DNA of 34,430 bases. Source: Hadesarchaea archaeon. GTDB lineage: Archaea; Hadarchaeota; Hadarchaeia; Hadarchaeales; Hadarchaeaceae. The stretch is from positions 1 through 34,430 of the forward strand of contig JAUWXQ010000002.1 in NCBI GenBank assembly GCA_030616305.1, read 5' to 3'. The notes under the pieces were generated by a model. That model did no database searches, was not told the DNA's origin, and saw only the letters and a program-made list of their open reading frames with translations. Shown piece after piece: positions 11,482 through 31,175 of the stretch (positions are counted from its first letter, which is position 1; every line of letters starts with the position of its first letter). The translations under genes were made by a program, and so were the position numbers.

Positions 11482-11485
11482 CGGA

Positions 11486-11968
11486 TCACTTTCGGCGAAG
11501 TGCTCGGTCTCCCGCTTCCACTTTTTCTTTCTTCTTGTGCTGGTACTCTGTGACCTTCTTAGAGAGTCCTTCGTCGCCTAGTGCTAGGATCTTCGCGGCC
11601 GCCAGAGCAGCAGCCTCGGGCTCCAGCACGACAAGTGGAGCGACGCCACTAGGCATGCGGAGTGATGAATAAATGTCGATGCCTGCAAATTTTTCTGAGT
11701 AAGGAGGGCATGCTATCACAGGATATTTGGTATTCGCATCGACCAACCCTGAAAGAGCATTTGACCTACCCGCAATCGTTATGTAGACCAATTCACCCCT
11801 GCGTTTTTCGTATTCTTTCAATATTTCAAGTAGCTTCTTGGGTGTCTTGTGCGCTGAAGCGATCCGTTGGTCGAAGTCTATCCCAAACTCTTTCAACGTA
11901 CGCCTAAGCGGTTCGGCAAAATCGACATCCACCTTGGAGCCGAGCAGGATAACGACTCTTCGCGACAT
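11486..11968 (-). CDS. purE: PurE-family (N5-)CAIR mutase / AIR carboxylase
   Basis: It has VVILLGSKVD, SAHKTP and SSLRMPSGVAP. The 70s-loop is atypical (IAGRSNALSG instead of AGGAAHLPG). The gene sits 4 nt upstream of purC. Confidence 0.75.
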   Translation of the reverse strand: MSRRVVILLGSKVDVDFAEPLRRTLKEFGIDFDQRIASAHKTPKKLLEILKEYEKRRGELVYITIAGRSNALSGLVDANTKYPVIACPPYSEKFAGIDIYSSLRMPSGVAPLVVLEPEAAALAAAKILALGDEGLSKKVTEYQHKKKEKVEAGDRALRRK

Positions 11969-12071
11969 TCATTGACACTCTTCAGGGCGAGATTTATAGA
12001 TTTCTCAGGGGGTGCTCCGCTAAGGTTAAAGAGGTTAGGGGAGTAGAATTTTTGGTCGGGGTGACAATAGG

Positions 12072-13526: not shown

Positions 13527-13553
13527 GCGCCGGTGGTTCTCTTGGCGGTGATT

Positions 13554-14408
13554 ATGGATGGAAAAACTCTTGCTGAAGAACTCAAACGGGAGATCGCCGC
13601 ACGCGTAAAAACTATTAAAGAACGAGGATTAACACCGACTCTTGCTACGGTCTTGGTCGGAGACGACACCTCATCGAGAACTTACGTGAGCGGAAAGCGC
13701 AGGGATTGTGAGGAGGTTGGCATCGACTTCAAGCTACATAAACTCTCTTCGAGCGTTACCGAACGTGAGTTGCTAGGACTCATCGAAAAGTTGAACGGCG
13801 ACTATAAGGTCCATGGCATATTTGTGCAGTTGCCGCTTCCCAAACACATAAACAGAAAAAAAGTGACAGCTAGCATAAGTCCTAGAAAAGACGTCGATGG
13901 GTTGCACCCCTACAACGTTGGAAAGCTCTGGCTCGGTATGTACGAGTCCGAGAACGACCTCTTGCCTTGTACACCTAAGGGAATCGTGAAACTTTTGGAT
14001 CGTTACAATATCGAGCTTGAGGGTAAACTGGCTGTGATAATAAACCGGAGCGACCTCGTCGGTAAACCGCTCGCAAAGCTATTTTTAGATAGAAACGCGA
14101 CGGTTGTCGTCTGTCATTCCAAGACGCCAGAGCTAGAAAAACAAACTAGAACCGCGGATGTTCTAGTCAGTGCAGTTGGAAGACGTCCAAGTTTTGTTGT
14201 TAGCGAGAAAATGGTCAAAAAAGGTGCGGTCGTCGTCGATGTCGGCATGAACTACGTTGGGGGCAAGTTGCAGGGTGATGTTGATTTCGAGCGGGTGAAA
14301 GAAAAAGCATCCTACATCGCACCTGTTCCTGGCGGTGTTGGCCCCATGACTCGCGTGATGTTGTTGCATAACGTTTTGATAGCCACAAAGCTTGCGGAAG
14401 GAGCATAG
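13554..14408 (+). CDS. folD: Bifunctional 5,10-methylene-THF dehydrogenase/cyclohydrolase
   Basis: Motifs VQLPLPKHI, INRSDLVGKPLAKLFLDRNATVVVCHSKT and PVPGGVGPMT are present. ATG 13554 (MDGKTLA) is preferred over GTG 13533. Confidence 0.9.
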   Translation: MDGKTLAEELKREIAARVKTIKERGLTPTLATVLVGDDTSSRTYVSGKRRDCEEVGIDFKLHKLSSSVTERELLGLIEKLNGDYKVHGIFVQLPLPKHINRKKVTASISPRKDVDGLHPYNVGKLWLGMYESENDLLPCTPKGIVKLLDRYNIELEGKLAVIINRSDLVGKPLAKLFLDRNATVVVCHSKTPELEKQTRTADVLVSAVGRRPSFVVSEKMVKKGAVVVDVGMNYVGGKLQGDVDFERVKEKASYIAPVPGGVGPMTRVMLLHNVLIATKLAEGA

Positions 14409-15004
14409 TGTCAAACGAGAAAAAAGTCATCAGACAAAAATTCAAGTCGTTGAGGATGCGCCTCTCTAAGGAAGAGGTGGTAATAAAAAGTGCACAGATA
14501 AAAAAGTCGCTCTTCGAACTGCCCGAATTTGCGAGGTCGAAAACCATCGTGTTTTACGTTGCTAAGCAAGTCAGCCGTGAGGTCGAAACTGAAGAGATGA
14601 TCAAGGAAAGCTTGAAGATGGGCAAACGCGTGCTGGTGCCTGTCGTTGACAATGCAGCGAGAAAAATACTCTTCTCTGAATTGCGAGATTACGATTCGGA
14701 GCTAGCTCCTGGCGCATTTGATATCCTTGAGCCCAAACCTTCGTGTAGACGACTTGTTCCCGCGTCTGAGAGCGACCTCATCATCGTGCCCGGAGTGGCG
14801 TTTGATATGGGGGGACATAGGCTTGGTTATGGTGGGGCCTACTACGATAGGCTTCTGAGAGAGTTAGCTTCGGTCAAACCCTCGCTACCGTTAGTCGGTT
14901 TGGCGTACGAACCGCAGGTCGTAGAGAAATTGCCGAATACCTCGCGTGACGTGCCGATAAACATCTTAGTGACTGAAAAAAGAGTGCTCCGTTTTAAGCT
15001 GTAA
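14408..15004 (+). CDS. 5-formyltetrahydrofolate cyclo-ligase (MTHFS)
   Basis: The characteristic VPGVAFDMGGHRLGYGGAYYDRLL is present. The GTG start overlaps the folD stop (TAGTG). Confidence 0.85.
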   Translation: MSNEKKVIRQKFKSLRMRLSKEEVVIKSAQIKKSLFELPEFARSKTIVFYVAKQVSREVETEEMIKESLKMGKRVLVPVVDNAARKILFSELRDYDSELAPGAFDILEPKPSCRRLVPASESDLIIVPGVAFDMGGHRLGYGGAYYDRLLRELASVKPSLPLVGLAYEPQVVEKLPNTSRDVPINILVTEKRVLRFKL

Positions 15005-15029
15005 AGACTATTCAAAAAGTGGCGGGACT

Positions 15030-16181
15030 ATGAGTTCCAAGTATGCTGAAGTGGGCATTGACGTGAGGAAGAAGGGCATAGAGGTGTTCAAGCCTTCCTT
15101 GGAGAGTCTTTTTCCCAAAGCCTTCTGTCCTGTGATTCGTGATTCAAAATTTAGAAAATATGGTATGGTGCTTCACACCGACGGCGCTGGGAGCAAGCCC
15201 CTCCAGAACTACCTGCACTGGCGTGAAACAGGCGAGAGCAGATGGTTCTGCGGCATTGCCCATGATGTCCTTGCGATGAATATCGATGATGTAATGTGTG
15301 TGGGCGCAGCGCCATTGGGTTTTGTCGATTATATTGCGGTAAATCAATCGAGGGTTCCTAAAAAAGAATTGCTGTCTGCTCTTAATACTGGCTTCAAGGA
15401 ATGCTTTGGCATGTTGAAGAAGTATGGGATAAAGATTTCATTCCTCGGTGGCGAAACCGCCGATTTGCCAGACCAGCTTCGAACGCTAGATGTCTCTGGC
15501 ACGGTAAGCGCTCGTGTGGAGTTGTCCAAAGTTATAAGCGGCGAGAGAATCAAGCCAGGCGACGTGATCATAGGTTTGAGGGGTGGCGCACGCACGAAAT
15601 ATGAGCGGCAGGAGAACAGCGGGATAATGTGCAATGGAATAACGCTCGCGAGACATTGCCTGATGAAAAGCGAATATGAGCGCAAGTACCCCGAGCTCAA
15701 AGACCCTAATGCGAAGGGCTACTATGGCAGGTTTGCGTTTGATGATTACCTCGACGAACTCGAAATGACGGTCGGCGAAGCCATTTCATCGCCAACTAGG
15801 ATTTTCGCCCCAGTGATCGCAAAGATTCTTGAGAAGCATGGCAAGCAAGTGACCGGTTTGGTTCACAATACCGGCGGTGGGCAGACGAAGTGCTTGAGAT
15901 TGGGGGAGAACGTCCACTACCTTAAGGACGACCTTATCAAGCCTGACCCGATATTTCGGTTGATTCAGCGAGAAGCGAAAGTAAGCTGGCGAGAGATGTT
16001 TGAGGATTTCAACATTGGTGTTGGTTTTGAAATAATAGCTAGAAAAAAAGGCGTGGAGGAAATTTTAGACGTTGCAGAGAGATTTGGTTTAGGGGCAAAA
16101 GTGATCGGAAGATGTGATAAAAGCGATGGCAGAAACAAACTGACCATTCGGAGTGAATTTGGAAGATTTGAGTACAGCTGA
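15030..16181 (+). CDS. purM: AIR synthetase (PurM family), divergent form
   Basis: PurM-superfamily motifs are present: HTDGAGSKP, DVLAMNIDDVMCVGAAPLGFVDYIA, GGETADLP, HNTGGGQTK and FNIGVGFEII. Confidence 0.8.
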   Translation: MSSKYAEVGIDVRKKGIEVFKPSLESLFPKAFCPVIRDSKFRKYGMVLHTDGAGSKPLQNYLHWRETGESRWFCGIAHDVLAMNIDDVMCVGAAPLGFVDYIAVNQSRVPKKELLSALNTGFKECFGMLKKYGIKISFLGGETADLPDQLRTLDVSGTVSARVELSKVISGERIKPGDVIIGLRGGARTKYERQENSGIMCNGITLARHCLMKSEYERKYPELKDPNAKGYYGRFAFDDYLDELEMTVGEAISSPTRIFAPVIAKILEKHGKQVTGLVHNTGGGQTKCLRLGENVHYLKDDLIKPDPIFRLIQREAKVSWREMFEDFNIGVGFEIIARKKGVEEILDVAERFGLGAKVIGRCDKSDGRNKLTIRSEFGRFEYS

Positions 16182-16183
16182 AA

Positions 16184-18601
16184 ATGGACCATAGAAAAGG
16201 ATTAAAAACCCTTTGTATACATCAACCGTGTGAGACCGTGACTTCACAAGTCTATGTAAAAAAAGATTTCCCGTTTGACTTCTTTGAAATTGATTTGCTG
16301 CGCGCGAGCGATGAGCAACTCTCACAAATAAGTCGAGAGCTTGGTATTGGGTTAGATCTCGAAGAAATGAAAAAATGCAAACGACATTTCTCAAAATTGG
16401 GAAGAAACCCAACCGATGTAGAGCTTCAGAGTATCGGCCAGACATGGTCGGAGCACTGTTATCATAAGACATTCAAGGGCGACGTGCGGATCGGAAGCCG
16501 AAAGGTGAGGCTTTTCAAGGACTTCATTGCAAAAGCTACAAAGGAGCTTTCACATTCTTGGTGCGTTTCGGTTTTTGAGGACAATGCAGGCATCGTAGAT
16601 TTCGAGCGTGGTTATGGGATAGCTGCCAAGGTTGAAACCCATAATCATCCCTCGGCGATTCATCCATTTGGAGGCGCAGCCACTGGTCTAGGTGGCCTGA
16701 TAAGAGATATTATGGGGGTTTGGGCCCAGCCGATCGCGAGCATCGGGGTATTTGGATTTGGCCCTCAGGACTACTCACAAAAGCTCCCCCCTGGCATGAA
16801 GCATCCAAAAACCATCTTCGAAGGAGTTGTAGAGGGTGTCAGGCAGTACGGCAGTCATATGAAGATCCCAAACATCGGCGGTGCGATTTACTTCGACGAA
16901 AGCTACGTTGGAAACCCAATAGTGTATTGTGGTTGCGTCGGCCTCCTCCCCCTTGACAAATACTTCAGAAGGACTAAAGTTGGCGATGTGGCATTACTCG
17001 CGGGCGGAAAGACTGGTAAAGAGGGTATTCACGGCGTTACTTTTGCCTCGGCGGAAATCGGAAAGATGGAAGGAGGGGAAAAAGCGGCTGAGTTGACATT
17101 CGATCCTGCAGTACAGGAGAGACTGGCGAGGGCGATCTTCAGAATCAGAGACGAGAACCTAGCTTCGGGCATAACTGATTTAGGTGGCGGTGGGATTTCT
17201 TGTGCGACTGGCGAAACCGCTTTTAGGTCAGGGTGTGGCATCGTCGTGGATCTCGAGAAAGCCCCGTTAAAACTCTCGAGCATGGTGCTTTGGGAAATTT
17301 GGGTTTCAGAATCACAGGATAGAATGTTTTTAACCATTCCCGAAAAGAACCTCGAGAAAGTGTTAAAGATATTTGAAGAAGAAAATGTTGAAGCGACACC
17401 TATTGGGAAATTCGTCAGAGGTAATTCTTTAGTGGTCAGATATCGGGGTCAAGAGGTCGCGAACTTAGATTTACAGTTCCTTTTCTCCCCACCGGAGGCT
17501 AAGAGGATAGCCAAGTGGAAGGCACCGAAGTTAGTTGAACCCAAATTTGCACAACCCCGTGATTTAACGAAAATTTTGCTTAGATTGCTGGCTGCAGCGA
17601 ATATCGGAAGTAGAGGTGGATTGATAAAGACTGATGAATCCTGGAAAAACGTAGTTCTGAGACCGTTCCATGGAAAACACGGTGGGCCAAACGATGCCGC
17701 GATTGTAAAACCTTTGCAGGATTCTCAACGCGGAGTGGTTATTTCTTGCGGTATAAACCCCAATTACGGACGAATCGATCCTTATTGGATGGCAGCTTCA
17801 AACGTTGAAGAAGCGATTAGAAACAACATTGCGGTAGGCGGTCAGCGAATCGCGTTGCTTGACAACTTCGTGTGGGGTAGTCCGGAGAAGGCCGAGCAAT
17901 TAGGTACGCTCGTACGTGCTTGCGAGGCTTGTTACGATTTCGCAAAGGCTTTTGATGCCCCTTATATTTCGGGCAAAGATAGCCTCTACAATGAGTCGGT
18001 GTTGGGGCCAGTGGCACCCACACTGCTGATAACAGCCATAGGTATCATCTCAGATGTCAGAAAAGCTGTTTCGGTAGACCTCAAAGGACCCGGTGGCGCG
18101 ATTTACATTGTTGGCCGAACTTATCCTGAGCTGGGCGGTTCGGAGTATTACAAGTTGTTTGGGAAAGTTGGTAGAAGTGTCCCCAAGGTCAAGGCGGCCA
18201 AAGCGAAAAAAGTGTTAAGTTCAATAACAAAAGCGATCGACTCAGGTTACGTTCGAGCTTGTCATGATTTTTCAGAGGGCGGGCTAGCCGTTGCTGCAGC
18301 AGAGATGGTACTCAGCAGCGATTATGGTGCTGAATTAGACTTGAAAAATGTTCCAGTTTCGATGAGCGGCAAGGCGAGAAATGATTTCATCTTGTTCTCT
18401 GAGTCGAACAGCAGATTTCTTGTTGAAGTTAAACAAGGAAAAGAGGAAAAGTTTGAAAAGTTAATAGAAGGGGATTTCGCGCTGGTCGGCCGGGTAAGTG
18501 GGGAAGATGGGTTTTCTGTAAACGGATTGAAAGGCAAAAAAATAATCGACATCAGTTCCGAAAAATTGCGAAAAGCTTGGAAAGAAGCTTTGTCGAAGTA
18601 A
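16184..18601 (+). CDS. purL: FGAM synthase II (large subunit)
   Basis: Motifs WSEHCYHKTF and VETHNHPSAIHPFGGAATGLGGLIRDI are present, with a duplicated PurM-like fold. The start is 3 nt after the purM stop. No purQ or purS lies adjacent. Confidence 0.92.
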   Translation: MDHRKGLKTLCIHQPCETVTSQVYVKKDFPFDFFEIDLLRASDEQLSQISRELGIGLDLEEMKKCKRHFSKLGRNPTDVELQSIGQTWSEHCYHKTFKGDVRIGSRKVRLFKDFIAKATKELSHSWCVSVFEDNAGIVDFERGYGIAAKVETHNHPSAIHPFGGAATGLGGLIRDIMGVWAQPIASIGVFGFGPQDYSQKLPPGMKHPKTIFEGVVEGVRQYGSHMKIPNIGGAIYFDESYVGNPIVYCGCVGLLPLDKYFRRTKVGDVALLAGGKTGKEGIHGVTFASAEIGKMEGGEKAAELTFDPAVQERLARAIFRIRDENLASGITDLGGGGISCATGETAFRSGCGIVVDLEKAPLKLSSMVLWEIWVSESQDRMFLTIPEKNLEKVLKIFEEENVEATPIGKFVRGNSLVVRYRGQEVANLDLQFLFSPPEAKRIAKWKAPKLVEPKFAQPRDLTKILLRLLAAANIGSRGGLIKTDESWKNVVLRPFHGKHGGPNDAAIVKPLQDSQRGVVISCGINPNYGRIDPYWMAASNVEEAIRNNIAVGGQRIALLDNFVWGSPEKAEQLGTLVRACEACYDFAKAFDAPYISGKDSLYNESVLGPVAPTLLITAIGIISDVRKAVSVDLKGPGGAIYIVGRTYPELGGSEYYKLFGKVGRSVPKVKAAKAKKVLSSITKAIDSGYVRACHDFSEGGLAVAAAEMVLSSDYGAELDLKNVPVSMSGKARNDFILFSESNSRFLVEVKQGKEEKFEKLIEGDFALVGRVSGEDGFSVNGLKGKKIIDISSEKLRKAWKEALSK

Positions 18602-18613
18602 TTCGTCCGCGAG

Positions 18614-19552
18614 TCATTCAAATTCAATTGTGGCTGGAGGCTTGCCTGACAGATCAAAAAGCACATGGGTGACGGTTGGAAGTTTTTCTGTTATCCTTTT
18701 CTCGATTCTACGCAGGGTTTCCCACGGCAGAGCAGTTGGCTCAGCCGTCATAGCGTCTTTAGATTGAACCACTCTTACGACAACTATCTCGCCGTATTTT
18801 CTCTTCCTGGTTTTTGTCACGCCTGTCGCCCTATCCCGCATGAGTACCGCGAAAGCCTGAAAACACGGCACATCCTTGGTCGCGTCTTCTACTATTGCAG
18901 TTGCTTCTCTGATGAGTTCTACCCGTTCAGATGTCACCTCGCCTAAAACCCTTATCGATAAACCTGGGCCTGGGAACGGTTTTCTTTCAACGACTTCGCG
19001 TGGAAGGCCAAGTGCTCGTGCCACCCCCCTGACCTGCGGCTTGTAGAGATCCTTCAGCGGCTCGAGAACTTTGTATCCATACCTCTCGAGCGGGCTGATG
19101 CCTATCTGTTCGAGCACGTTATGTTGAGTCTTTACTCCACCTTTTGTCTCGACCACATCCGCTGCGATTGTTCCTTGCAGCAAACAGTCCACCTCGAGCT
19201 CGCGCGCGAGACGGGCGAATGTCAGATAGAAAGCCTCCCTGAACGCTCTCCTTTTCTCTTCGGGATCCACCCTGCCCTTGAGAGCTTCGAAGAAATAGTC
19301 CTTCACATCATAAATTCTCGCCTTCATGCCTAATCGTCTGAGTATCTTCACAACCTCTTGGGGTTCGCCTTTTCGCATCAACCCGTCATCCAGGAAAATG
19401 ACCTTTGACCTCTCGCCTACCGCTTTGTGCCCGAGCGCGGCCGTGGTCATGCTGTCCACGCCCCCGGAAGTTGCGGCCAGCGCGTCACCATTACCGATGG
19501 TTTGCCTTAGCCACGCGATTTTTTCATCCATAAATTTTTCGGGTTTGAACAT
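18614..19552 (-). CDS. guaA: GMP synthase subunit B (ATP pyrophosphatase domain)
   Basis: It has the PP-loop ATSGGVDS and the C-terminus GKPPATIEFE. ATG 19552 (MFKPEKF) is preferred over TTG 19600. No glutaminase subunit lies adjacent. Confidence 0.88.
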   Translation of the reverse strand: MFKPEKFMDEKIAWLRQTIGNGDALAATSGGVDSMTTAALGHKAVGERSKVIFLDDGLMRKGEPQEVVKILRRLGMKARIYDVKDYFFEALKGRVDPEEKRRAFREAFYLTFARLARELEVDCLLQGTIAADVVETKGGVKTQHNVLEQIGISPLERYGYKVLEPLKDLYKPQVRGVARALGLPREVVERKPFPGPGLSIRVLGEVTSERVELIREATAIVEDATKDVPCFQAFAVLMRDRATGVTKTRKRKYGEIVVVRVVQSKDAMTAEPTALPWETLRRIEKRITEKLPTVTHVLFDLSGKPPATIEFE

Positions 19553-19717
19553 TGACGGAACTATTTTTCCGTGTCTTAAATAGATTCCTCCATGCTTCAA
19601 GGAGTTTTAATTTCAATTTGGGTTTTGGATAATTTGGCTATTGTACGGATTCCGACGAACTCCTTCATTAAGTTGATATCGGTCTCACCAATTTAGCGTT
19701 TCACATGTTTTTGCTAA

Positions 19718-20896
19718 TTAAGGCTTAATACCTTTTTTATACTTTTCAACCTTATCAAGTAACTTCACAATTTCTTTTTTGGTGATCTTTGGGCTCAGCA
19801 ATATTTGAAGCCTCTGTCCCCCCTCAAAATTTGTGACATCTGGTGGGAGAAAAACTCCGAAGTCAGGTACTTTTTTACTTTTTAAGAGATCACTTTTCAG
19901 CCTTCTGAGTATTTTGTTATACATTTCCGAAGGCACGTCCTTTCGGGACAGAATGCCCATACCTTCCTTGGCCAGGAGTTCGTGGGTTTCTCTTGAGCCA
20001 GCATATTTCAAAAATTTCATCGCTTTATCGTGGCCTGGAGCTCCTTTGAAGGCGATCCATGCGTTGCCTCCCACCACCATGGTGCGCTTAACTCGCGGGT
20101 TTATAGGTGGGAGAATAAAATAGTCGTAATCATCTCCAGGTGAGTAGTTATATGTTCGTTGCCACATTCCATCTACCCATTCCCCTTGGAGCTGCATCGC
20201 TGCTTCACGCCTGTTCAGCTTCATCCATGCCATAGGGAAGTTGTAAACATAGGGGTCTGGGTAGAAATATTCGTTAACCAATCTTTTCAGCCATTGATAT
20301 GCTTCTACTATTACAGAATCCGTCCAGCTTTCTTTTCCTTCCATCAGCCGAAGGTAAAAATCAGGGCCAGCCAGTCCTTTCAGAATGTGTTCGAACCAAA
20401 GAGAGGTTCCCCACCCACTAGTGATAATTGGGTACATTCCTTCTTCTTTCAGGGCCTCGCAGAGTTTTAAAAATTTGTCCCAGGTTTTAGGCGGGCGAAG
20501 CCCCTTCTCCCTAAAAACATCTGTCAGATACCAAACTGCAAAAGTGAACTCTTTTGAGGGTACCCCATAAATTTTGTTGCCTACTCTGCAACCTTTTTTC
20601 ATTTCACTGGGGAAGACTTTAGAATACCCCTCTTCTTGCCAAAGGTCCGTGAGTTCAATGAGGTGACCACCCTCTGCAAATTTTATCAGCCTTTGCCCTA
20701 TTTCAGTGGTGGATACGTTAGGTGGGTTCTCCTCTGCAATTTTGGCCCATAAAGTTGGGAAGTAGACTCCCCACGTTAAAGCTTGGGTTTGGACGTTAAT
20801 TGAGGGGAACTTCTTTCTAAACTTACGCATGAAAGAATTCACAGGCAATTTCTCAGGGCCAGCCCAGAAATGATATATTTGTAGCTTTTTCCCCAT
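19718..20896 (-). CDS. Family-1 extracellular solute-binding-protein homologue (sugar ABC SBP fold) lacking any signal peptide or anchor
   Basis: The N-terminus KKLQIYHFWAGPE...FRKKFPSINV matches the start of mature SBP_bac_1 proteins. There is an in-frame TAA 8 codons upstream of the ATG. I see no TM segment, lipobox, class III signal or C-terminal anchor, and no ABC permease or ATPase nearby. Confidence 0.7.
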   Translation of the reverse strand: MGKKLQIYHFWAGPEKLPVNSFMRKFRKKFPSINVQTQALTWGVYFPTLWAKIAEENPPNVSTTEIGQRLIKFAEGGHLIELTDLWQEEGYSKVFPSEMKKGCRVGNKIYGVPSKEFTFAVWYLTDVFREKGLRPPKTWDKFLKLCEALKEEGMYPIITSGWGTSLWFEHILKGLAGPDFYLRLMEGKESWTDSVIVEAYQWLKRLVNEYFYPDPYVYNFPMAWMKLNRREAAMQLQGEWVDGMWQRTYNYSPGDDYDYFILPPINPRVKRTMVVGGNAWIAFKGAPGHDKAMKFLKYAGSRETHELLAKEGMGILSRKDVPSEMYNKILRRLKSDLLKSKKVPDFGVFLPPDVTNFEGGQRLQILLSPKITKKEIVKLLDKVEKYKKGIKP

Positions 20897-20940
20897 ATAA
20901 TCAACTTTTGTTAGTTCTTATCTTAAAAATCATCCTTAAT

Positions 20941-21810
20941 TCACCTCAATCTCTGAAGCATTGCCACTCGGGAGATCACGAGCCCGGCCCGATTAGTAAT
21001 TTCGATGTTAAACGAGGCGAGCCTTTCCTCGATGTGGGGCAAAAGCCCTCGAAATTTTTCGAAGTACATCAACCGCTGTCTTTTAACAGTACCAGCCTGC
21101 ATCCATTCAAATTTTAATATACCATCGAAACAGGATTTTATTTCAGTTTCTATTTTACTGTCCAAGGCGCCCGGTGTAAAAATAGCGTAAATCAGCCCGT
21201 CCCATATTTTTGCCATGCGCTGAAGTCCAAGCAAAAAAGATATGAGCCATTTCTGGTCATCCCCATAGAGCCTAGCCAAATCGTTTAAAGAGTGGAGGAT
21301 TACCACGCTGTTTTTGGCATTTTTGTTCAGGGCATCAACCACGCTTGTTCTTATTTCTCCTTTCCTGGTTTTTTTTGTTGCTCCCATTTTATGGGTCCAT
21401 TCGGGTGGAACCTGCAGATTCGCGAAATACTCAGATGAAAGGTCTTTGAAATTTACATTTTCTTCAAACAGCTCACGAAATTCTGAACTGAAACTTCGGG
21501 CAATTTCGTCGATTATGTCAGACCTTGACCTTGAGAAGGAAATGTAGCAAATTTGTTCCGGTAAACCTACTCCCTCACGTAACCCGGGGGCGAGACGGCT
21601 TTTCTTTATAGCGGCAAACGTGGTGGCAGAGGTATACGCGAACTCCACATTCCCGCTCCCTTCCTCCCCGGAAAGAAGAACCAATGAACCTGAGGGGAAG
21701 CCTCCCCCTACGATGGCATCTAAAGAAGAAACTCCACTTGGGATCCGCTTTAAAATTTTTGCCACCAATACTAACCCCTCGCGTTTACTTCTCCTTTTTC
21801 GGTTCCACAA
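20941..21810 (-). CDS. KaiC/RecA-superfamily (ArlH/FlaH-like) protein with degenerate Walker A and B
   Basis: The RecA-like N-terminus reads IPSGVSSLDAIVGGGFPSGSLVLLSGEEGSGNVEF, so Asn-Val replaces the P-loop Lys-Ser/Thr. The Walker B position reads VVILHSLNDL, with His replacing Asp. The start overlaps the upstream MinD-like gene by 26 nt. Confidence 0.7.
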   Translation of the reverse strand: MWNRKRRSKREGLVLVAKILKRIPSGVSSLDAIVGGGFPSGSLVLLSGEEGSGNVEFAYTSATTFAAIKKSRLAPGLREGVGLPEQICYISFSRSRSDIIDEIARSFSSEFRELFEENVNFKDLSSEYFANLQVPPEWTHKMGATKKTRKGEIRTSVVDALNKNAKNSVVILHSLNDLARLYGDDQKWLISFLLGLQRMAKIWDGLIYAIFTPGALDSKIETEIKSCFDGILKFEWMQAGTVKRQRLMYFEKFRGLLPHIEERLASFNIEITNRAGLVISRVAMLQRLR

Positions 21811-22540
21811 CGGCAGGGGGGGCCGCTTCTTTTATCAAATTTTTAGCAAGAATTCGCAGGGCCTTGGAAGCATTGCTATTAGGCTTACGCACCATCAGGG
21901 GTTTGTGCAATGCCAAGGATTTGATGATTTCCTCGTCCTCCGGGATAGTGCCGATGACGTTACTCCCCAACCTCATTTCAACTTCGGTCTTCCTCAATTG
22001 GGGCATCTTCCCAATCCATTTTTTTCTTATCCTGTTCAAGACCACACCTCTTGTCCTGATGTCGAGCACTTCAAGGGCAGTTTTTAACTTGAGCGCATCG
22101 GCGACAGAGAGTTCGTCAGGAGTTACTACCAAGAAAATTTCTTCTACAGCTTTCAGCGCGCCGAGGACATAGTTGTTCAATCCAGATGGCGTGTCTACTA
22201 GGATAAATTCATACTGGTCCTTAATCGACATAATGATTTTTTTAAGCAGGCGGATGTCCGCTTGAAGAAAACTATCAAGTGAAGAACTAGATGGGATGAC
22301 AGCTAAATTTGCGGGGCCCTTATAAATTGCGTGTTGAATTTTTTTAGATTTGGCGAGAACTTCACACAAAGTTATGGGGGGTTCTGAGATCCCTAGAAGG
22401 CTACCAAGGTTTGGCATGGGGATATCAGCATCCACAACCAGAGTTTTTTGTTTATATCTCGCTAGGGCGATACCTAAATTCGCAACTATTGTACTTTTAC
22501 CAACACCGCCTTTTCCTGAAGCAAAACCGTAAATTTTCAT
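21785..22540 (-). CDS. MinD/ParA-family ATPase, pilus-locus paralogue
   Basis: It has the deviant Walker A ASGKGGVGKST, VVDAD and ILVDTPSG, and a C-terminal Pro/Lys tail. It is the first gene of the minus-strand operon. Confidence 0.85.
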   Translation of the reverse strand: MKIYGFASGKGGVGKSTIVANLGIALARYKQKTLVVDADIPMPNLGSLLGISEPPITLCEVLAKSKKIQHAIYKGPANLAVIPSSSSLDSFLQADIRLLKKIIMSIKDQYEFILVDTPSGLNNYVLGALKAVEEIFLVVTPDELSVADALKLKTALEVLDIRTRGVVLNRIRKKWIGKMPQLRKTEVEMRLGSNVIGTIPEDEEIIKSLALHKPLMVRKPNSNASKALRILAKNLIKEAAPPAVVEPKKEK

Positions 22541-22570
22541 CTCGCTCCCTTGCGAGGTTGGTCCCCCGCA

Positions 22571-22580
22571 TATAAAAATA
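22571..22580 (-). promoter_or_regulatory. TATA-like box for the MinD/KaiC-like/SBP-like operon
   Basis: TATAAAAATA (TATTTTTATA on the minus strand) lies 31-40 nt upstream of start codon 22540, which implies a very short leader. Confidence 0.35.
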
Positions 22581-22602
22581 GTGTGGTGAAATTTTGGGGT
22601 GA

Positions 22603-22610
22603 TTTTATAA
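22603..22610 (+). promoter_or_regulatory. TATA-like box for the pilus ATPase/platform operon
   Basis: TTTTATAA lies 26-33 nt upstream of ATG 22636, which suggests a leaderless or near-leaderless transcript. Confidence 0.35.
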
Positions 22611-22635
22611 AGTTCAAAAACAGTTTTTATATTGG

Positions 22636-24438
22636 ATGAAAATGGCTAGAAAAAAGAAGAGGGTTATAAGAAAAAAGAAGCGCAAGGTGCCTTCTATCCT
22701 CAAAAAACCAACAATTAGTTCTAAGCCCAGGTTAAAAAGGAAAAAGGCCCTGCATAAAAAACTTGAGGAAAAATTAGTCCTTAAGGGTAGACGAAAAAAA
22801 TCAAGATTGGATGTCCTAGACGAACATACTGCCGTTGAGGAGATTACCAAGGGTTTCGCTAAGCTTAAACCGGCCCCAACGAAGCGCTCAGTGGTTTCGA
22901 TTGAGGGCCTCCCCACCTATAACACGATAATTCATGGCCCCATGGCCGTCTTCCCAGGAGTTCCAGGATACAATGAGCTAGAAAGGTACTGGGTTGACGA
23001 GCCATTTGCCTTTGCAGTGATTTTAGAAAATCCCGAGACCAACTCTCGCCTCTACTACTTGGTGGAACCCATCCCAACTGAATCGGAGCAGGAGTTGCTC
23101 AGCACAATAGTAGAACGGATGAGGGGGAGCATCCCGTACGTAGGAACGCCTGCCGATAAGGAAAAATTTCTGGCAAAAAAGGTCGTGGAATTCCTAGGTG
23201 GCATTGGCATACTTTTCGACCCGAAATTGGTCCATAAGATAGCTTATTTCGTCAGCAGAAGCTGCTTGGGCCTCGGGGAGATAGACCCACTTACCAAGGA
23301 TCCGAACATTGAGGACATCGGTTGCAACGGGTTGAATGCCCCTTTGTTTCTCTACCACCGAAAATATTACAACATCCCAACCAATCTCACCTTCACCGAC
23401 GCCCAACGTTTGAACTCCTTTGTGATAAGCTTGGTCGAGCGGACTGGAAAGATGATATCATTTGGGCGCCCTACCGTAGACGGGACGCTTCCAGACGGTT
23501 CTAGGCTACAGGCCACTCTTGGGGACGAGGTGACTACTAGGGGAAGTACTTTCACCATCCGCAAATTCGCGAAGGAGCCTTTTACTCCCATCCACCTCAT
23601 TAAATACAACACTTACTCTCCCGAGATGCTGGCATACCTCTGGTTGATGGTAGAAAATAAGAAGAACCTCATGTTTATCGGGGAGACGGCGTGTGGAAAG
23701 ACCTCCAGCCTAAACGCTATCTCCCTCTTCATCGCCCCAGATGCCAAGATAGTATCCTTGGAGGAAACCCGAGAACTCACCTTTTATCAGGAGAACTGGA
23801 TTCCAAATGTCACTAGGGAAGTCATAGGGGGAGAAGTCCCGATAACACTCTACGACCTCCTCCGCCAAGCCCTGAGACAGAGGCCGGAGGTTCTAGTGGT
23901 TGGAGAGGTCCGAGGCCAAGAGGGATTAACTCTGTTCCAGGCGATGTCGACGGGACACACGTGCTATTCCACCCTTCACGCCAGCGCCGTGGAAGAAGCG
24001 GTGAACCGATTGGAGGGGGCCCCCATAAATGTTCCCCACAACATGCTAGCGTCCTTGGATGTCGCTTGCTTCCAGTCAATCGCCTATTTAGGCAAGCGAA
24101 GGGTGAGGAGGACCAATACCATCGTGGAGTTCACGGGGCTGGATCCGGCTACAGGTGGCCTCAGAATAAACGAGGTCTTCAAGTGGGATCCAAGCAGAGA
24201 TCGGTATGAGCAGGTTGGGGAGTTTATGATTGTTCGGGAGATAATGGAGGCGAGGGGATGGACCCACACGGAGCTCGAGCGTGAACTTAAAGATAGAGTC
24301 GAGCTTCTCAAGTACCTTGCGGATAACGATATCGTGAGGTACGATGAAGTGGCCCCCGTCATGCGTAACTTTTACGCCAACCCGGAGAAGCTACTAAAAC
24401 AAATAAAAGGAAAGGGAAGAAAATCCAAGGGGGGTTAG
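22636..24438 (+). CDS. Type IV pilus/archaellum-type secretion ATPase (ArlI/FlaI/PilB-GspE family) with a polybasic N-terminal extension
   Basis: It has Walker A GETACGKTS, the Asp box/Walker B PEVLVVGEVRGQE and the His box TGHTCYSTLHAS. An N-terminal YWVDEPFAFAVI...YYLVEP motif is typical of FlaI-like proteins. Roughly the first 57 aa are very rich in Lys/Arg. Confidence 0.9.
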   Translation: MKMARKKKRVIRKKKRKVPSILKKPTISSKPRLKRKKALHKKLEEKLVLKGRRKKSRLDVLDEHTAVEEITKGFAKLKPAPTKRSVVSIEGLPTYNTIIHGPMAVFPGVPGYNELERYWVDEPFAFAVILENPETNSRLYYLVEPIPTESEQELLSTIVERMRGSIPYVGTPADKEKFLAKKVVEFLGGIGILFDPKLVHKIAYFVSRSCLGLGEIDPLTKDPNIEDIGCNGLNAPLFLYHRKYYNIPTNLTFTDAQRLNSFVISLVERTGKMISFGRPTVDGTLPDGSRLQATLGDEVTTRGSTFTIRKFAKEPFTPIHLIKYNTYSPEMLAYLWLMVENKKNLMFIGETACGKTSSLNAISLFIAPDAKIVSLEETRELTFYQENWIPNVTREVIGGEVPITLYDLLRQALRQRPEVLVVGEVRGQEGLTLFQAMSTGHTCYSTLHASAVEEAVNRLEGAPINVPHNMLASLDVACFQSIAYLGKRRVRRTNTIVEFTGLDPATGGLRINEVFKWDPSRDRYEQVGEFMIVREIMEARGWTHTELERELKDRVELLKYLADNDIVRYDEVAPVMRNFYANPEKLLKQIKGKGRKSKGG

Positions 24439-26751: not shown

Positions 26752-26997
26752 CGGAACTTCCACCGAGATGACGAGAAACTAGAGTTGGGAGATTGCCCCC
26801 GTAAATTTGTCAAAGGGGTAACCGAATGTCTCAAGCGTCGAGATGCAACTAACAATATCTTGAAGGAAATCGTTCCACCGATATTTTAGTCTCGAAATCA
26901 GGATCAACAGGCTTCCTTGTGACGTTACGCAGTTTGATGCCGAAACCTAGCGAGGGCACGTTTTTAATTGCCCCCACAAATAAGTAAAAATGAGATC

Positions 26998-28713
26998 ATG
27001 AGAAGTCTTTATACAGACGAGAGAGGCGTTTCACCGGTTGTCGCAACGCTTTTACTCATAAGCCTTTTCATAGGAGTTTACGCTATTTACATGAACGTAA
27101 CTATTCCCAGCGAGTTCGCCACGAAGGAAAAGGAGCACATGTCGGAAGTGCGAGATAGCTTCCTCAGACTCCAAAGTGCTGTGCAGGAGATGTCGGCCGG
27201 CGAGAGCAGAAGTATTTCGGTGCCGATGTCCGCAAACTTGGTCTCTGGGACTGTTCGGGGCCCGGGCATTGGAGGCAGGCTTGTAGTCATTGAGAACGAG
27301 AGTTTGTACTATGAAATTCAAAACGCTTACTACTCGCCGCAAACTTACATATACGAAAACGGGGCCGTAATCCTGTACCAACCCCGTGAAAACAAGAGCA
27401 TTATGGTATCCCCGCCGACGATGGTTAGTGTTGTCCCTTACGGTGACAACGTTAAAGTTACCATTCGAAGTGTTCGACTCATGAGCTCTGGCGAGGTCAC
27501 GGGTACTGGCACGGAAACACTTGCGGTGTCAATAATCACGAGCGAGACGAGTGGGGGGAACCCCAACGGTGTCTCAGGGATGCCGGGGGATTCAACCTAT
27601 ACTCACGTTGACCTCTCAAGTTCTGGACTTAACCTGCTTAATTTTGATGGCACCAGCACAGAAGGTGTCTGGACGGATACGGAGAATTTCAATGGTGGAT
27701 GGGGTCATAGTTTTCCAACAGAAGAGATGCCATCTGCTGGCGAATTTATCTGCGAAGACGCAAGCTGTAGTGTAACATTCTTGGCCCCAGACCCCACCGG
27801 AACAGCTAAAAACTTTATTAAATGTAGTGCGGAAACCGTAGATTTTACGGACGGAGAATATGACAAAATCCACATCATAGCCGCCTCAAACTATGGCGAT
27901 ATCACCAAGGACTTCACGGTGAATTATACCGACGAGACATCTACAGACTTTTCTAGAACGGTTGAGGCATGGGAGGAGGCTGTGGCAGGCGGCGATTATC
28001 ATCATACCGCTAAAACATTTACCCACAGACATCATTATACAACTGGAAATGATTCCGCAACGGTTCGTTTATTCCATATTTGGCTTGATACCGATGAAAC
28101 CAAGACCGCAACTTCTATGGATTTGCCAACTGATGTCAATATCAAGGTAATGGCAGTTACTTTAGAGGAGGCTGCAGCCGCCCAGCCCCCCGACAAACCG
28201 ACGCTTTCCTCCCCCTCGGATGGAACGACCACCAATGATAACACCCCGGCCTTCACGTGGACGGCCGGTTCTGGCGCGACCTCTCACCGCCTGGTAATCG
28301 ATAATGACCCGGACTTCGCGGACGAGGAGAACATCTATGATAATGCTAACTTGGGCGGCTCCGCAACCTCGTGCACGATCGAGAACGAGCTCCCATACGA
28401 CAACTACTATTGGAAGGTAATCGCGGTCAACGCGCAGGGCGAGAACGAGTCGGATGTCTGGACCTTTGAAGTTGTTGAAGAACTCGTTGAAGAGCTACTG
28501 GAAAAGGTCACAATAGTCATACAATCGAATTACCCTGACGCGTGGAGGGATTACTTGGTGGGCCTTGTTGAGCAGTTGCGTGATGACGGTATCTATGCGA
28601 CGATAGACCTTCAAAACTTGCAGCTCACCGTTCACGGCGAGAGCACAGACCCCGGTGTAAAGGACATTTATGTCGTCAGGGAATCCAAAGACGTCTCTAT
28701 CGCAATCTCCTGA
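26998..28713 (+). CDS. Large class III signal-peptide (archaeal type IV pilin-like) protein with inserted domains including an FN3-like module
   Basis: The N-terminus MRSLYTDERG|VSPVVATLLLISLFIGVYAIY is an archaeal prepilin motif of the Pilin_N/DUF1628 type. ATG 26998 is preferred over TTG 26968. The FN3-like segment runs PTLSSPSDG...TPAFTWT...YYWKVIAVNAQGENES...WTFEV. Confidence 0.8.
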   Translation: MRSLYTDERGVSPVVATLLLISLFIGVYAIYMNVTIPSEFATKEKEHMSEVRDSFLRLQSAVQEMSAGESRSISVPMSANLVSGTVRGPGIGGRLVVIENESLYYEIQNAYYSPQTYIYENGAVILYQPRENKSIMVSPPTMVSVVPYGDNVKVTIRSVRLMSSGEVTGTGTETLAVSIITSETSGGNPNGVSGMPGDSTYTHVDLSSSGLNLLNFDGTSTEGVWTDTENFNGGWGHSFPTEEMPSAGEFICEDASCSVTFLAPDPTGTAKNFIKCSAETVDFTDGEYDKIHIIAASNYGDITKDFTVNYTDETSTDFSRTVEAWEEAVAGGDYHHTAKTFTHRHHYTTGNDSATVRLFHIWLDTDETKTATSMDLPTDVNIKVMAVTLEEAAAAQPPDKPTLSSPSDGTTTNDNTPAFTWTAGSGATSHRLVIDNDPDFADEENIYDNANLGGSATSCTIENELPYDNYYWKVIAVNAQGENESDVWTFEVVEELVEELLEKVTIVIQSNYPDAWRDYLVGLVEQLRDDGIYATIDLQNLQLTVHGESTDPGVKDIYVVRESKDVSIAIS

Positions 28714-28749: not shown

Positions 28750-29697
28750 CTAAACCCATCTTACTTGATCCACATAGAAGGTATTATCTCCCCCAACAAC
28801 TGTGGTTTTGAACGGACAGTAGACTTGGTTTAAGTTACTGAAATCACTTGCAGGGATAATTATCTCCTGCCAAGTGTTCGTACCATCCCAACCATAGGCG
28901 CTGATCCATTTGGTTTGCGTGTCCCCCTCTGGCGCTTCTATCTCTACCTTCAAATTCTCGGTAGTCTTGACCCAGAACTTCAACTGGTCGTAACCTGAAA
29001 GGTCTATGGTGTGATCAGCAGGATAAACCAACAACACACCCCAGCCCGCGTAGTTACCTACCTCAGACCCGCTCGTGGTCTTGAAGCACTTTATGCCTTC
29101 TGGAGGGATTTCACCAGTATAATCACCGTCAAATGTTCCGGCTGGCAATTCCCACTCGCTGCCGTCCCAAGTCTGAATCTCAGAGTCAGGGGGAATCCCA
29201 GAATCATCATAAACCAAATAGAAGGGCCCGCCTACTTGTGTAGTAACATTTGCAAGAACCACGCCCGATGGATCGTGAACTACGAATATCTCAACTTCTG
29301 TGCCATTTTCATAATAGGTCTCGCCTCGTGGTGTTGAAAAGTTATGCCAGTTCAAGAGCACACACGCGGTATCGTCGCCAAAATTGATTAGGTTGTCAGA
29401 AGTGATCTTCATCGAGGTCGAGCTCTCGTTGCCTAGATTGTTCACCCCATTAATGGTCACCCTGAGTTCACTTACCTTAAGGGATTCTCCTCCTTTATGA
29501 GTGAATGAAACCCTCGTCACCAAATTATCGGCATCCGCTTGAATCAACTCAGCCCTTATATCACCGAGCTCTACTTCTGGTGCCCTCCCTCCGGGCTGCA
29601 TTTGACCCACGGCGACCGCCACCACGCTAACAGCCGCTATCGTCAGCCCTATGAGCAAGATTGTCGCGATTACGGGCGTTACCCCTCTTTCACTCAT
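28750..29697 (-). CDS. Class III signal-peptide pilin-like protein with a C-terminal lectin/CBM-like beta-sandwich domain
   Basis: The N-terminus is MSERG|VTPVIATILLIGLTIAAV, and ATG 29697 is preceded by a G-rich SD. The C-terminal pattern is DLSGYDQLKFWVK...TNTWQEIIIP...TFYVDQVRWV, and it is shared with the 31844-33025 protein. Confidence 0.8.
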   Translation of the reverse strand: MSERGVTPVIATILLIGLTIAAVSVVAVAVGQMQPGGRAPEVELGDIRAELIQADADNLVTRVSFTHKGGESLKVSELRVTINGVNNLGNESSTSMKITSDNLINFGDDTACVLLNWHNFSTPRGETYYENGTEVEIFVVHDPSGVVLANVTTQVGGPFYLVYDDSGIPPDSEIQTWDGSEWELPAGTFDGDYTGEIPPEGIKCFKTTSGSEVGNYAGWGVLLVYPADHTIDLSGYDQLKFWVKTTENLKVEIEAPEGDTQTKWISAYGWDGTNTWQEIIIPASDFSNLNQVYCPFKTTVVGGDNTFYVDQVRWV

Positions 29698-29790
29698 CCC
29701 CCATCCCCTACACAATATATCCACCACCAGTTAATTTATTAGATTAAACTTTAAATTTATCCCCGAGTACCCAACTCTAAGGGGGTTGAA

Positions 29791-31034: not shown

Positions 31035-31043
31035 CAATATTAC

Positions 31044-31054
31044 TTAAAATTTTG
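31044..31054. promoter_or_regulatory. Palindrome-containing 11-mer TTAAAATTTTG, copy 1 (candidate Lrp operator)
   Basis: This is an exact repeat of the 11-mer at 31096-31106. The core AAAATTTT is a perfect palindrome. It lies in the divergent Lrp/pilin intergenic region. Confidence 0.35.
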
Positions 31055-31095
31055 AACTTTTAAGCTTTTACTTATTAAGTGCGTGAAAAAATATT

Positions 31096-31106
31096 TTAAA
31101 ATTTTG
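31096..31106. promoter_or_regulatory. Palindrome-containing 11-mer TTAAAATTTTG, copy 2 (candidate Lrp operator)
   Basis: This exact second copy is 52 bp (about 5 helical turns) from copy 1. It lies just upstream of the pilin TATA-like box TTTAAATA (31122-31129). Confidence 0.35.
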
Positions 31107-31121
31107 GGAGAGGAAAAAGGG

Positions 31122-31129
31122 TTTAAATA
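31122..31129 (+). promoter_or_regulatory. TATA-like box for the small pilin gene
   Basis: TTTAAATA lies about 47 nt upstream of ATG 31176. A strong GGAGG SD (31165-31169) lies 6 nt before the start. Confidence 0.4.
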
Positions 31130-31175
31130 GGCCCCAACATAAATAAACTTACATAAAAACAAAAGGAGGGAAAAA

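Follow-up and report, generated by a model that had tools for sequence, protein, structure and literature searches.

A MinD-type ATPase, a KaiC-like pseudo-ATPase and a signal-less solute-binding protein encoded divergently to a type IV pilus motor in Hadarchaeota: a candidate regulatory module

The 34,430-nucleotide stretch of Hadesarchaea archaeon contig JAUWXQ010000002.1 analysed here (the window) carries, on its minus strand between positions 19718 and 22540, three packed genes that encode an archaeal MinD-subfamily ATPase, a KaiC-like pseudo-ATPase and a protein with the fold of a carbohydrate-type solute-binding protein (SBP) and no export signal. Divergent to them stand the motor genes of a type IV pilus. 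We consider it about an even chance, on comparative sequence grounds, that the three proteins constitute a module in which a cytoplasmic sugar-sensing SBP, a MinD switch and a pseudo-KaiC adaptor control the adjacent adhesion pilus of the PilB3/PilC3 type. An earlier sequence-only reading of this DNA had proposed a pilus-regulating trio of this composition. Part of that idea has stood, as the neighbourhood is conserved and the SBP gene is no pseudogene, but the link between the SBP and the pilus has proved restricted to particular lineages. Profile searches with hidden Markov models assign each protein to the family expected of it (SBP_bac_1, KaiC PF06745 and MinD TIGR01969), all above their cutoffs, and the trio recurs beside the pilus motor in two relatives at 76-88% identity (L081 and L082; related loci are cited by number throughout).

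The KaiC-like protein matches PF06745 at 34.8 bits against a gathering score of 26.6, the domain being found in all 25 members of its family, and its AlphaFold2 (AF2) model, with a predicted local distance difference test (pLDDT) score of 85.6 and a predicted template modelling score of 0.87, retrieves SSO2452, PH0186 and the CI domain of KaiC as best Foldseek matches (E ~1e-14). Alignment of the window protein with 15 relatives and a canonical KaiC bears out its earlier description as 'dead', both the Walker A Lys and the Walker B Asp being replaced. The Walker A sequence of the window protein is GEEGSGNV (Lys to Asn), compared to GTYGTGKT in the canonical KaiC of L007, and its Walker B sequence is VVILHS (Asp to His), compared to ILDS in relatives. 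Every aligned member of the family has lost the Walker A Lys, which is replaced by Asn, His, Gln, Ala or Ser (the equivalent region reads GDFQAGQEEF in L114). The Walker B Asp of the ILDS motif is retained in Methanomicrobiales and Thermoplasmata and lost in the clade of the window and in the hadarchaeal L055, where LHS, LNS or LYT are found instead. The family also shares an insertion bearing a conserved F[KR]DLS...VP..W motif. Judged by these motifs, the protein is a pseudo-ATPase of the KaiC superfamily that lacks canonical ATP binding and hydrolysis. Its earlier placement as an ArlH-like family member does not extend to orthology: the protein scores 36.6 bits against the ArlH equivalog NF052589, whose cutoff is 215, and falls far below the cutoffs of PRK06067 and PRK08533 as well. 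Structures of ArlH or FlaH do not occur among the top 50 Foldseek matches of its model, and no archaellum operon accompanies the gene; ArlH orthology is therefore rejected.

The genomic company of this family was surveyed in 80 loci encoding proteins at 32-42% identity, taken from one genome per species, with their open reading frames (ORFs) searched using the window proteins. Genes for a PilB3-like ATPase and a TadC-like platform protein lie divergent to the dead KaiC in 65 of the 69 loci with at least 2 kb of upstream sequence. On the downstream side, a canonical KaiC gene follows in 72 of the 76 loci with sufficient room and a type IV pilin gene in two, an arrangement that is near-universal outside Hadarchaeota and suggests a heteromer of pseudo- and active ATPases at the pilus loci of Methanomicrobiales and other lineages. 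Directly upstream, a MinD gene on the same strand is found in three of the 69 loci, all of them in Hadarchaeota. Pfam annotation bears out both types of layout, the one in L007 (Methanoculleus chikugoensis) and the other in the hadarchaeal L055, in which MinD is followed by dead KaiC and then by a Pilin_N pilin. A Halobacteriota metagenome-assembled genome (MAG) has TadC and PilB3 genes divergent to a run of dead KaiC, KaiC, DUF7504 and KaiC, and one further locus holds a dead KaiC/KaiC pair without pilus genes. As far as gene neighbourhoods can tell, the link of the pseudo-KaiC family to pilus motors is both ancient and strong, and in Hadarchaeota an active MinD is predicted to occupy the place that an active KaiC holds in other lineages. 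No canonical KaiC partner is encoded in the window, in which RadA (473-1423) alone gives a weak match. The SBP is absent from all 80 loci found by way of the KaiC-like protein, and its linkage is thus not general to the KaiC-like family.

The MinD-like protein of the module scores 231.3 bits against TIGR01969 (minD_arch; cutoff 201.75) and retains the deviant Walker A motif GKGGVGKS, the switch motif VVDADI and the Walker B motif ILVDTP, which mark it as an apparently active ATPase. With the MinD encoded ahead of the KaiC-like gene in L055 it shares 34% identity. Inspection by eye of its C-terminus (...EAAPPAVVEPKKEK) revealed no obvious amphipathic membrane-targeting helix. A second MinD/ParA paralogue of 239 residues, scoring 164 bits to the module MinD, is encoded at 2110-2829 of the minus strand, close to RadA (plus strand) and between a haloacid dehalogenase-type hydrolase and a metallophosphoesterase; it is unlinked to pilus genes.

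The third protein is an unambiguous match to SBP_bac_1 (PF01547; E = 4.8e-27, 96 bits against a cutoff of 26). Profile comparison with structures aligns it over nearly its full length with the glucose/galactose-binding protein of Thermus thermophilus (PDB 2B3B; E = 8.5e-42), followed by binders of chitin-oligosaccharides, galactose/acarbose and xylo-oligosaccharides. Its AF2 model (pLDDT 76.8) superimposes on 2B3B over the full length with a template modelling score (TM-score) of 0.85 at approximately 22% identity, and the two-lobe fold is, according to this model, complete. No longer ORF is possible, as an in-frame stop lies eight codons upstream of the ATG, and the protein begins MGKKLQIYHFW, at the first β-strand of the fold. 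There is no hydrophobic segment, the maximum mean Kyte-Doolittle hydropathy over 19 residues being 0.58, and no Sec or twin-arginine translocation (Tat) signal, lipobox, transmembrane anchor or class III signal was found in the sequence. The protein was correctly described as signal-less from the outset.

This signal-less state is a property of a clade. A word-indexed search recovered 16 proteins at 44-87% identity, beyond which identity drops to 30%; all 16 are signal-less, whereas the distant matches have signal peptides or lipoboxes. The maximum hydropathy of 12 residues in the N-terminal region lies between 0.3 and 1.3 across the clade, compared to 2 or more in 130 of the 149 nearest outgroup proteins, the other 19 being mostly fragments or bearing Tat-type or weaker signals. 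A profile search run exhaustively over 1.84 billion representative sequences likewise returned only two family members (654 and 381 bits) and then a next match at 290 bits. Most members have a basic N-terminus, which in several is short and strongly basic; examples are MGKK..., MRKTK... and ...KKEKKRPKKKK.... With the exception of one contig, all genome matches belong to Hadarchaeota, with two to three paralogues per MAG; the exception is a 2.8-kb contig binned as Candidatus Poribacteria (L100; DTYX01000555.1), probably a binning error given a distribution otherwise confined to Hadarchaeota. Two further SBP_bac_1 proteins that lie outside the family, P0170 (406 residues) and P0183 (393 residues), also start at the first β-strand without a signal and are possibly independent cytoplasmic SBPs or products of mis-called starts.

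The neighbourhoods of the SBP family were compared over approximately 26 informative distinct loci, obtained after collapsing duplicate contigs. The arrangement of the window, in which MinD, dead KaiC and SBP genes are divergent to the pilus motor, is shared by L081, L082 and L090. The last of these, from the Hadarchaeota MAG binchicken_co349_82 (positions 2-1941), lies on a cut contig in which the KaiC-like and SBP genes (70% identical to those of the window) are each split into two ORFs, reflecting either an assembly frameshift or true decay. On the short contig of L103, which encodes an SBP of approximately 51% identity, the order is swapped, with the SBP gene followed by the dead KaiC gene after a 33-nt gap; a cut-off gene of 21 codons after the KaiC-like gene is uninformative. 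The 49.5-kb contig of L114 (SBP at 43% identity) presents a more extensive rearrangement: three pilin-like genes are followed by KaiC and dead KaiC, while ArlJ, ArlI and a pilin stand on the opposite strand, divergent to an SBP gene and then a MinD gene whose product retains the DxD motif. Two gene orders therefore unite the SBP with MinD, dead KaiC and a pilus motor, and L103 adds a third layout in which the SBP and dead KaiC alone are seen.

A larger group of 11 loci has the SBP gene followed directly by a gene for a ParA-like ATPase that is 27% identical to the window MinD, and most of these adjoin genes for a glycoside hydrolase (GH) family 94 phosphorylase and permeases of ATP-binding cassette (ABC) transporters. 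L112 illustrates the type, with the order GH35, GH3, membrane-anchored exported SBP, permease, permease, MalK, signal-less SBP, ParA-like ATPase and a weakly matching winged-helix protein. Since the transporter at this locus has its own membrane-anchored SBP, the signal-less copy is an extra component, predicted to be cytoplasmic; separate exported SBPs are likewise present in the ABC-adjacent loci L099/L105, and no ABC genes flank the SBP gene of the window. Five other loci have the SBP gene alone beside genes for PolB, MetAP, fibrillarin and Nop5. L088 lies within a sugar ABC/GH26/GH2 locus without a ParA-like gene, and three more loci have other contexts. Altogether, the SBP stands beside an ATPase of the MinD/ParA type in approximately 16 of the 26 distinct loci, in three gene orders, which makes this ATPase type its commonest neighbour, and the glycosidase neighbours of the family comprise GH94, GH35, GH2, GH26 and GH3.

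Several neighbours of the SBP paralogues merit description in their own right. The ParA-like ATPases of the sugar loci (L084 4200-4940, L086 3412-4155, L093 11176-12000 and L099 11149-11931) keep the KGG[VT]GKT motif, and replacement of the VVDADI switch by MEVGG or VETNV suggests altered or lost hydrolysis. The winged-helix protein, of approximately 210-230 residues, matches HTH_24 at 20.7 bits, just below the cutoff, and lies beside SBP/ParA-like pairs in approximately 10 loci (for example L084 4944-5576, minus strand, and L112 12536-13201, plus strand); from its position, it is a candidate transcription factor of the SBP/ParA-like module. On a Hadarchaeota-like metagenome contig, L116, a cellulosome-like protein with CBM11, cohesin and dockerin domains (1801-2985, plus strand) is encoded approximately 200 bp downstream of an SBP/ParA-like pair. 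Upstream of the SBP paralogue in L098, positions 2-5434 encode a 1477-residue protein combining Ig-like and HerA/DUF87-type ATPase domains and a 321-residue coiled-coil protein (DUF7310).

The pilus genes divergent to the module encode a motor of the non-archaellum type. The ATPase matches T2SSE at 108 bits and PilB3_C at 33.3 bits (cutoff 27), with PilB3_N just under the same cutoff at 22.8 bits, and the platform protein matches T2SSF at 107 bits in two stretches. The sequence-only reading had assigned the pair to the ArlI and ArlJ families, which holds at the level of the superfamily and of the divergent placement, but not at the level of the archaellum equivalogs: the ATPase scores 391 bits against FlaI (NF058587) and the platform protein 117 bits against ArlJ (NF004704), each with a cutoff of 550. 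These sub-cutoff scores, together with the PilB3 domains on the ATPase, point to an adhesion-pilus motor, and identity with an archaellum motor is rejected. No archaellum accessory gene occurs among the neighbours, which are the PilB3-like ATPase, the TadC-like platform and pilins of the DUF7289 and Pilin_N types. The T2SSE core, the single TadC-like platform gene and the pilins with class III signals place the system among the PilB3/PilC3-type pili, the euryarchaeal 'clade 2'. Three window proteins carry class III signals, including the Pilin_N pilin at 31176-31703 of a second cluster. The 133-residue membrane protein of the operon has no Pfam or NCBIfam match. The pilus had also been called lectin-bearing; Pfam detects no lectin domain in the 581-residue pilin-like protein of the window, while the protein in the equivalent position in L081 does contain a ConA-like Laminin_G_3 domain (108 bits).

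A feature of the ATPase that may bear on its regulation is a hyper-basic N-terminal extension of approximately 60 residues (22636-22815), with 29 Lys or Arg among the first 60. It is conserved across L081-L083 and is reduced in length in L114, and no counterpart exists in the ATPases of Methanoculleus L007 and Halobacteriota L101, two pilus loci that have no MinD. Such an extension could serve as a contact for MinD, for the membrane or for nucleic acid.

At the nucleotide level, the three minus-strand ORFs first delineated at 19718-20896, 20941-21810 and 21785-22540 are all present, as is the 95-bp divergent intergenic region, which is AT-rich (61% A+T compared to 51.6% for the window). The region contains a pair of TATA-like boxes in opposite orientation (TTTATAAAA and TTTTTATAT), recognised by their position and conservation, and both are invariant in L081 and L082: TTTTATAAA lies on the plus strand approximately 28 nt upstream of the ATG of the pilus ATPase, and TTTTTATAT on the minus strand approximately 33 nt upstream of the ATG of MinD. 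Across its whole length the region shows 89% identity between the window, L081 and L082, compared to a synonymous divergence (dS) of 0.3-1.3 in the flanking genes, and is a phylogenetic footprint, drawn from three close sequences alone, that would contain the putative promoters of both gene sets. One detail has to be revised. The 26-nt overlap reported between the MinD and KaiC-like genes depends on a TTG start at 21810, and homologues of the KaiC-like protein start later, at the equivalent of TTG 21768 or GTG 21765, after a GAGGGG Shine-Dalgarno-like motif; the genes would then be separated by a spacer of 16-19 nt after the MinD stop, with no overlap. They are tightly packed under either choice. 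The ratio of nonsynonymous to synonymous divergence (dN/dS) against two relatives is 0.08-0.24 for the SBP gene and falls in the same range for those of MinD, the KaiC-like protein and the pilus ATPase; all four genes are under purifying selection.

How the parts might work together can be outlined as follows. The SBP would stay in the cytoplasm and bind an imported sugar or oligosaccharide, a carbohydrate ligand being plausible because the nearest structures bind sugars and GH genes neighbour the family. Through its basic N-terminus and its binding domain, it would modulate the ATP cycle or the dimer state of MinD in a ligand-dependent manner, as activators of ParA/MinD do. MinD would in turn act with the pseudo-KaiC, an ArlH-like adaptor docked on the hexameric pilus ATPase, whose hyper-basic extension might provide a further contact for MinD. 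MinD, pseudo-KaiC and SBP would thereby set when or where the adhesive pilus is assembled and would couple adhesion to carbohydrate supply. A wider proposal, which we hold tentatively and think rather less probable than the module itself, is that of a ligand-gated MinD/ParA switch: a sugar receptor of an ABC transporter, having shed the signal peptide, would have acquired a basic N-terminus that activates MinD and would now report cytoplasmic sugar, with one paralogue steering the pilus together with the pseudo-KaiC and the others steering sugar import. As all of the proteins are small and soluble, the hypothesis is directly testable in vitro.

Several observations weigh against a role of the SBP in pilus control. 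L083 (66% identity) keeps MinD, the KaiC-like protein and the pilus motor and has no SBP, which is thus dispensable for the core module, and most family members reside away from pilus genes, in sugar-import and glycosidase loci or alone by PolB; on both counts, the primary partner of the SBP appears to be the MinD/ParA ATPase and not the pilus. The basic N-terminus of the window SBP amounts to two lysines only, and segments of its model (residues 120-125 and 238-261) are of low confidence. The loci compared come from related MAGs and are non-independent samples. The tree in which members linked to pilus, KaiC-like or MinD genes fall into three separate clades of a monophyletic signal-less family, and which suggests that the partnership with MinD-type ATPases is old, was built by neighbour-joining and has no support values. 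Furthermore, the spacer ahead of the SBP gene, exactly 44 nt as first described, has an A/T-rich element (ATTTTTAAGATA) approximately 27 nt upstream of the SBP ATG and no Shine-Dalgarno motif. The ATTTTTAA core alone is identical in L081 (ATTTTTAATACA), and L082 is more diverged (GGATTTTAGGGTA). The spacer might thus act as a promoter within the module, from which the SBP would be transcribed without a leader.

These points lend themselves to an explanation by two abutting modules, in which MinD and dead KaiC run the pilus while the SBP senses sugar and regulates its import or catabolism, through targets such as MalK-type ABC ATPases, GH94 phosphorylase pathways or a transcription factor, with its position beside the pilus being incidental. 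The absence of the SBP from L083 and its possible own promoter fit this account, as do the GH35 gene directly after the SBP gene in L082, the weak winged-helix protein of approximately 210 residues conserved beside SBP-ParA pairs, and the predominance of sugar loci among the paralogues (GH94 divergent to SBP-ParA; permease-permease-MalK-SBP-ParA; MalK divergent to SBP and GH2). Yet chance abutment does not readily explain why the SBP is met again with pilus genes, MinD and dead KaiC in the rearranged L114, at only 43% identity, or why in L103 it adjoins the KaiC-like gene with the two genes exchanged. Its pairing with an ATPase of the MinD/ParA class extends to the sugar loci, and this class is not a known component of sugar pathways. 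We regard this account as doubtful, if a serious contender. It is unlikely, in our estimation, that the SBP fold has instead become a ligand-independent scaffold or cargo adaptor for MinD/ParA, comparable to McdB or PomX, with sugar sensing lost. A long stem does separate the clade from exported SBPs, identity to ligand-bound structures is only 22%, basic N-termini typify ParA/MinD activators whatever the attached domain does, and one group of paralogues stands alone by housekeeping genes. The two-lobe architecture is nevertheless complete, with its TM-score of 0.85 to a liganded SBP, ten tryptophans are invariant and many other aromatics conserved, as is typical of sugar-stacking pockets, and the family recurs by glycosidases and sugar ABC importers.

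Continued export of the SBP was also weighed, with the pilus machinery or a non-classical route delivering it to the cell exterior as a bindosome-like receptor for an ABC importer encoded elsewhere. The SBPs of the Sulfolobales bindosome depend for assembly on machinery resembling that of type IV pili, a preprint of 2026 puts forward the display of SBPs by pilus machineries, and the pilus ATPase gives a weak match to BasE. Bindosome SBPs, however, carry a class III signal and a hydrophobic helix, and the present clade has no hydrophobic N-terminal segment; the transporter of L112 is already served by a normal membrane-anchored SBP, and the scores of 190 bits for BasE and 41 bits for BasF compare with cutoffs of 1000 and 1300. 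A bindosome-like system is rejected on these grounds, and an extracellular SBP of any kind is very improbable. The notion that the SBP gene is an annotation artefact, or a 5'-truncated pseudogene of an exported SBP (the case that the sequence-only reading had named as fatal to its proposal), is effectively refuted. Signal-less SBP_bac_1 proteins are rare, and the KaiC-like and SBP genes are split in L090, but the reading frame in the window is intact and of full length, the signal-less start is shared by the 16 proteins down to 44% identity, the fold is complete, and dN/dS lies in the range of MinD and the pilus ATPase.

The features of the module and of the adjacent pilus genes are collected in Table 1. 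To the left of the module lies a purine-biosynthesis cluster (6997-19600) encoding PurN-like, PurD, PurF-like, PurC, PurB, FolD, PurM-like, PurL and GuaA subunit B proteins; the gene that follows the SBP gene is accordingly a housekeeping gene, and differs among relatives (GH35 in L082). PurL of the window shares 75-81% identity with its counterparts in Hadarchaeota (Hadesarchaea) MAGs and about 60% or less with those of Bathyarchaeia, which assigns the DNA to a Hadarchaeote. To the right, a second cluster related to type IV pili (30555-34375) comprises an Lrp/AsnC regulator (30555-31037, minus strand), the Pilin_N pilin with a class III signal (31176-31703, plus strand), a PKD-domain protein (31844-33025, minus strand) and a shorter T2SSE ATPase (33200-34375, minus strand) whose ORF may leave the window.

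Table 1. Coordinates of the three-gene module, its control regions and the neighbouring pilus genes in the window
Feature	Coordinates	Strand	Basis or remarks
Signal-less family-1 (carbohydrate uptake transporter 1, CUT1; carbohydrate-type) SBP-fold protein, 392 residues, predicted cytoplasmic	19718..20896	-	SBP_bac_1, AF2 model
Spacer between KaiC-like and SBP genes, 44 nt	20897..20940	-	A/T-rich element ATTTTTAAGATA
KaiC-fold pseudo-ATPase, ~275 residues	20941..21768	-	PF06745, alignment; maximal ORF to TTG 21810
Archaeal MinD-subfamily ATPase, 251 residues	21785..22540	-	TIGR01969, motifs
Divergent control region, 95 bp	22541..22635		Two opposed TATA-like boxes, conservation
PilB3-like type IV pilus assembly ATPase (ArlI/FlaI superfamily), 600 residues	22636..24438	+	T2SSE
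TadC/PilC/ArlJ-family membrane platform protein, 589 residues	24492..26261	+	T2SSF
Pilus-operon membrane protein, 133 residues	26350..26751	+	Same position in L081, L082
Pilin-like protein, 581 residues, class III signal, probably adhesive pilus subunit	26968..28713	+	Signal motif
Archaeal type IV pilin (Pilin_N), 325 residues, class III signal ERG|VTPVIATILLIGL	28750..29727	-	PF07790, 52 bits

Little is understood of how archaea time and place the assembly of type IV pili, and the roles of MinD and KaiC proteins in this control have so far come from genomic predictions or from studies of the archaellum. The pairing of MinD and KaiC-like proteins by a type IV pilus motor is of a known kind, if so far by prediction alone. 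What appears to be new is a KaiC subfamily uniformly dead at Walker A and paired in Hadarchaeota with MinD rather than with an active KaiC, as well as a clade of cytoplasmic carbohydrate-type SBP folds, almost only from Hadarchaeota, that partners MinD/ParA ATPases and, in some lineages, pilus loci. The former, tied as it is to pilus motors, is a candidate ArlH-like adaptor for pili. Were the SBP to act as a ligand-dependent activator of MinD, it would bring a small-molecule input to ParA/MinD systems otherwise thought to be governed by protein, DNA and membrane. It would represent both the first Venus-flytrap sensor among ParA/MinD activators and the first case of a small molecule acting as input to the pilus motor of an archaeon, and would link carbohydrate supply to adhesion in an uncultured deep-subsurface archaeal lineage.

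The closest precedent is the survey of Makarova, Koonin and Albers (2016; PMC4858521), which names FleN/MinD (arCOG00589) and ATPases of the KaiC family as likely to regulate type IV pili in archaea and places KaiC genes with the ATPase/TadC operon in Methanomicrobia. The presence of MinD- and KaiC-family genes at a locus for a PilB3-like 'clade 2' ATPase and TadC is common to that survey and to the window, and the pattern was recovered here in the 65 of 69 loci described above. The passages of the survey that were searched mention neither loss of the Walker A Lys, nor a pairing of MinD with dead KaiC, nor an SBP, and do not cover Hadarchaeota. The statement that no described pilus regulator has this composition is consequently too broad for MinD and KaiC-like proteins at pilus loci, which those passages already predict, and holds for the SBP, which they do not report. 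Within a literature search of limited coverage of subscription journals, no description of cytoplasmic SBP-MinD pairs or of pilus regulation in Hadarchaeota was found.

Among motility systems, ArlH offers the model for an adaptor: it is reported to bind ArlI and to be needed for motor assembly (PMC5019145), which makes an adaptor role for the pseudo-KaiC plausible. Both are single-domain proteins of the KaiC/RecA fold encoded by a hexameric ATPase of the ArlI superfamily. ArlH binds ATP, however, whereas the KaiC-like protein is without the Walker A Lys and Walker B Asp and has an insertion of its own family; nor does the locus of the window contain archaellins or ArlF, G, C, D, E or X. CirA of Haloferax volcanii is likewise encoded divergently to motor genes, namely arlI/arlJ, and regulates motility (PMC10983859). 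It acts at least partly through transcription of archaellum genes and is paired with neither MinD nor an SBP. Its Walker A motif is functional, as the disruptive effect of a G33E change in it demonstrates. MinD4 of H. volcanii is reported to position archaella (bioRxiv 10.1101/2020.04.03.021790), and resembles the bacterial FlhG/FleN proteins and the window MinD as a MinD-family ATPase; these proteins position or count motility machineries, a positioning role that the window MinD may share. MinD4 differs in being encoded away from the pilus locus and in having neither an SBP nor a pseudo-KaiC as partner.

The bindosome (BasEF) of Sulfolobales likewise links sugar-binding SBPs genetically to a pilus-like ATPase/platform pair, but its SBPs are exported and processed by prepilin peptidase, unlike the signal-less clade. 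With the CUT1 SBPs, such as 2B3B, NagB1/2, AcbH and BxlE, this clade shares the same fold over its whole length. Those proteins are exported receptors of ABC importers, whereas the members of the clade are predicted to be cytoplasmic and, as L112 illustrates, are not needed as transporter receptors. The likeness that bears most directly on the proposed mechanism is to the ParA/MinD activators MinE, ParB, PomX and McdB, in which an activator results from joining a basic N-terminal peptide to an interaction domain (PMC7993993). The signal-less SBPs have basic N-termini and MinD/ParA neighbours, and as no known activator has an SBP (Venus-flytrap) domain, activation gated by a ligand would be new.

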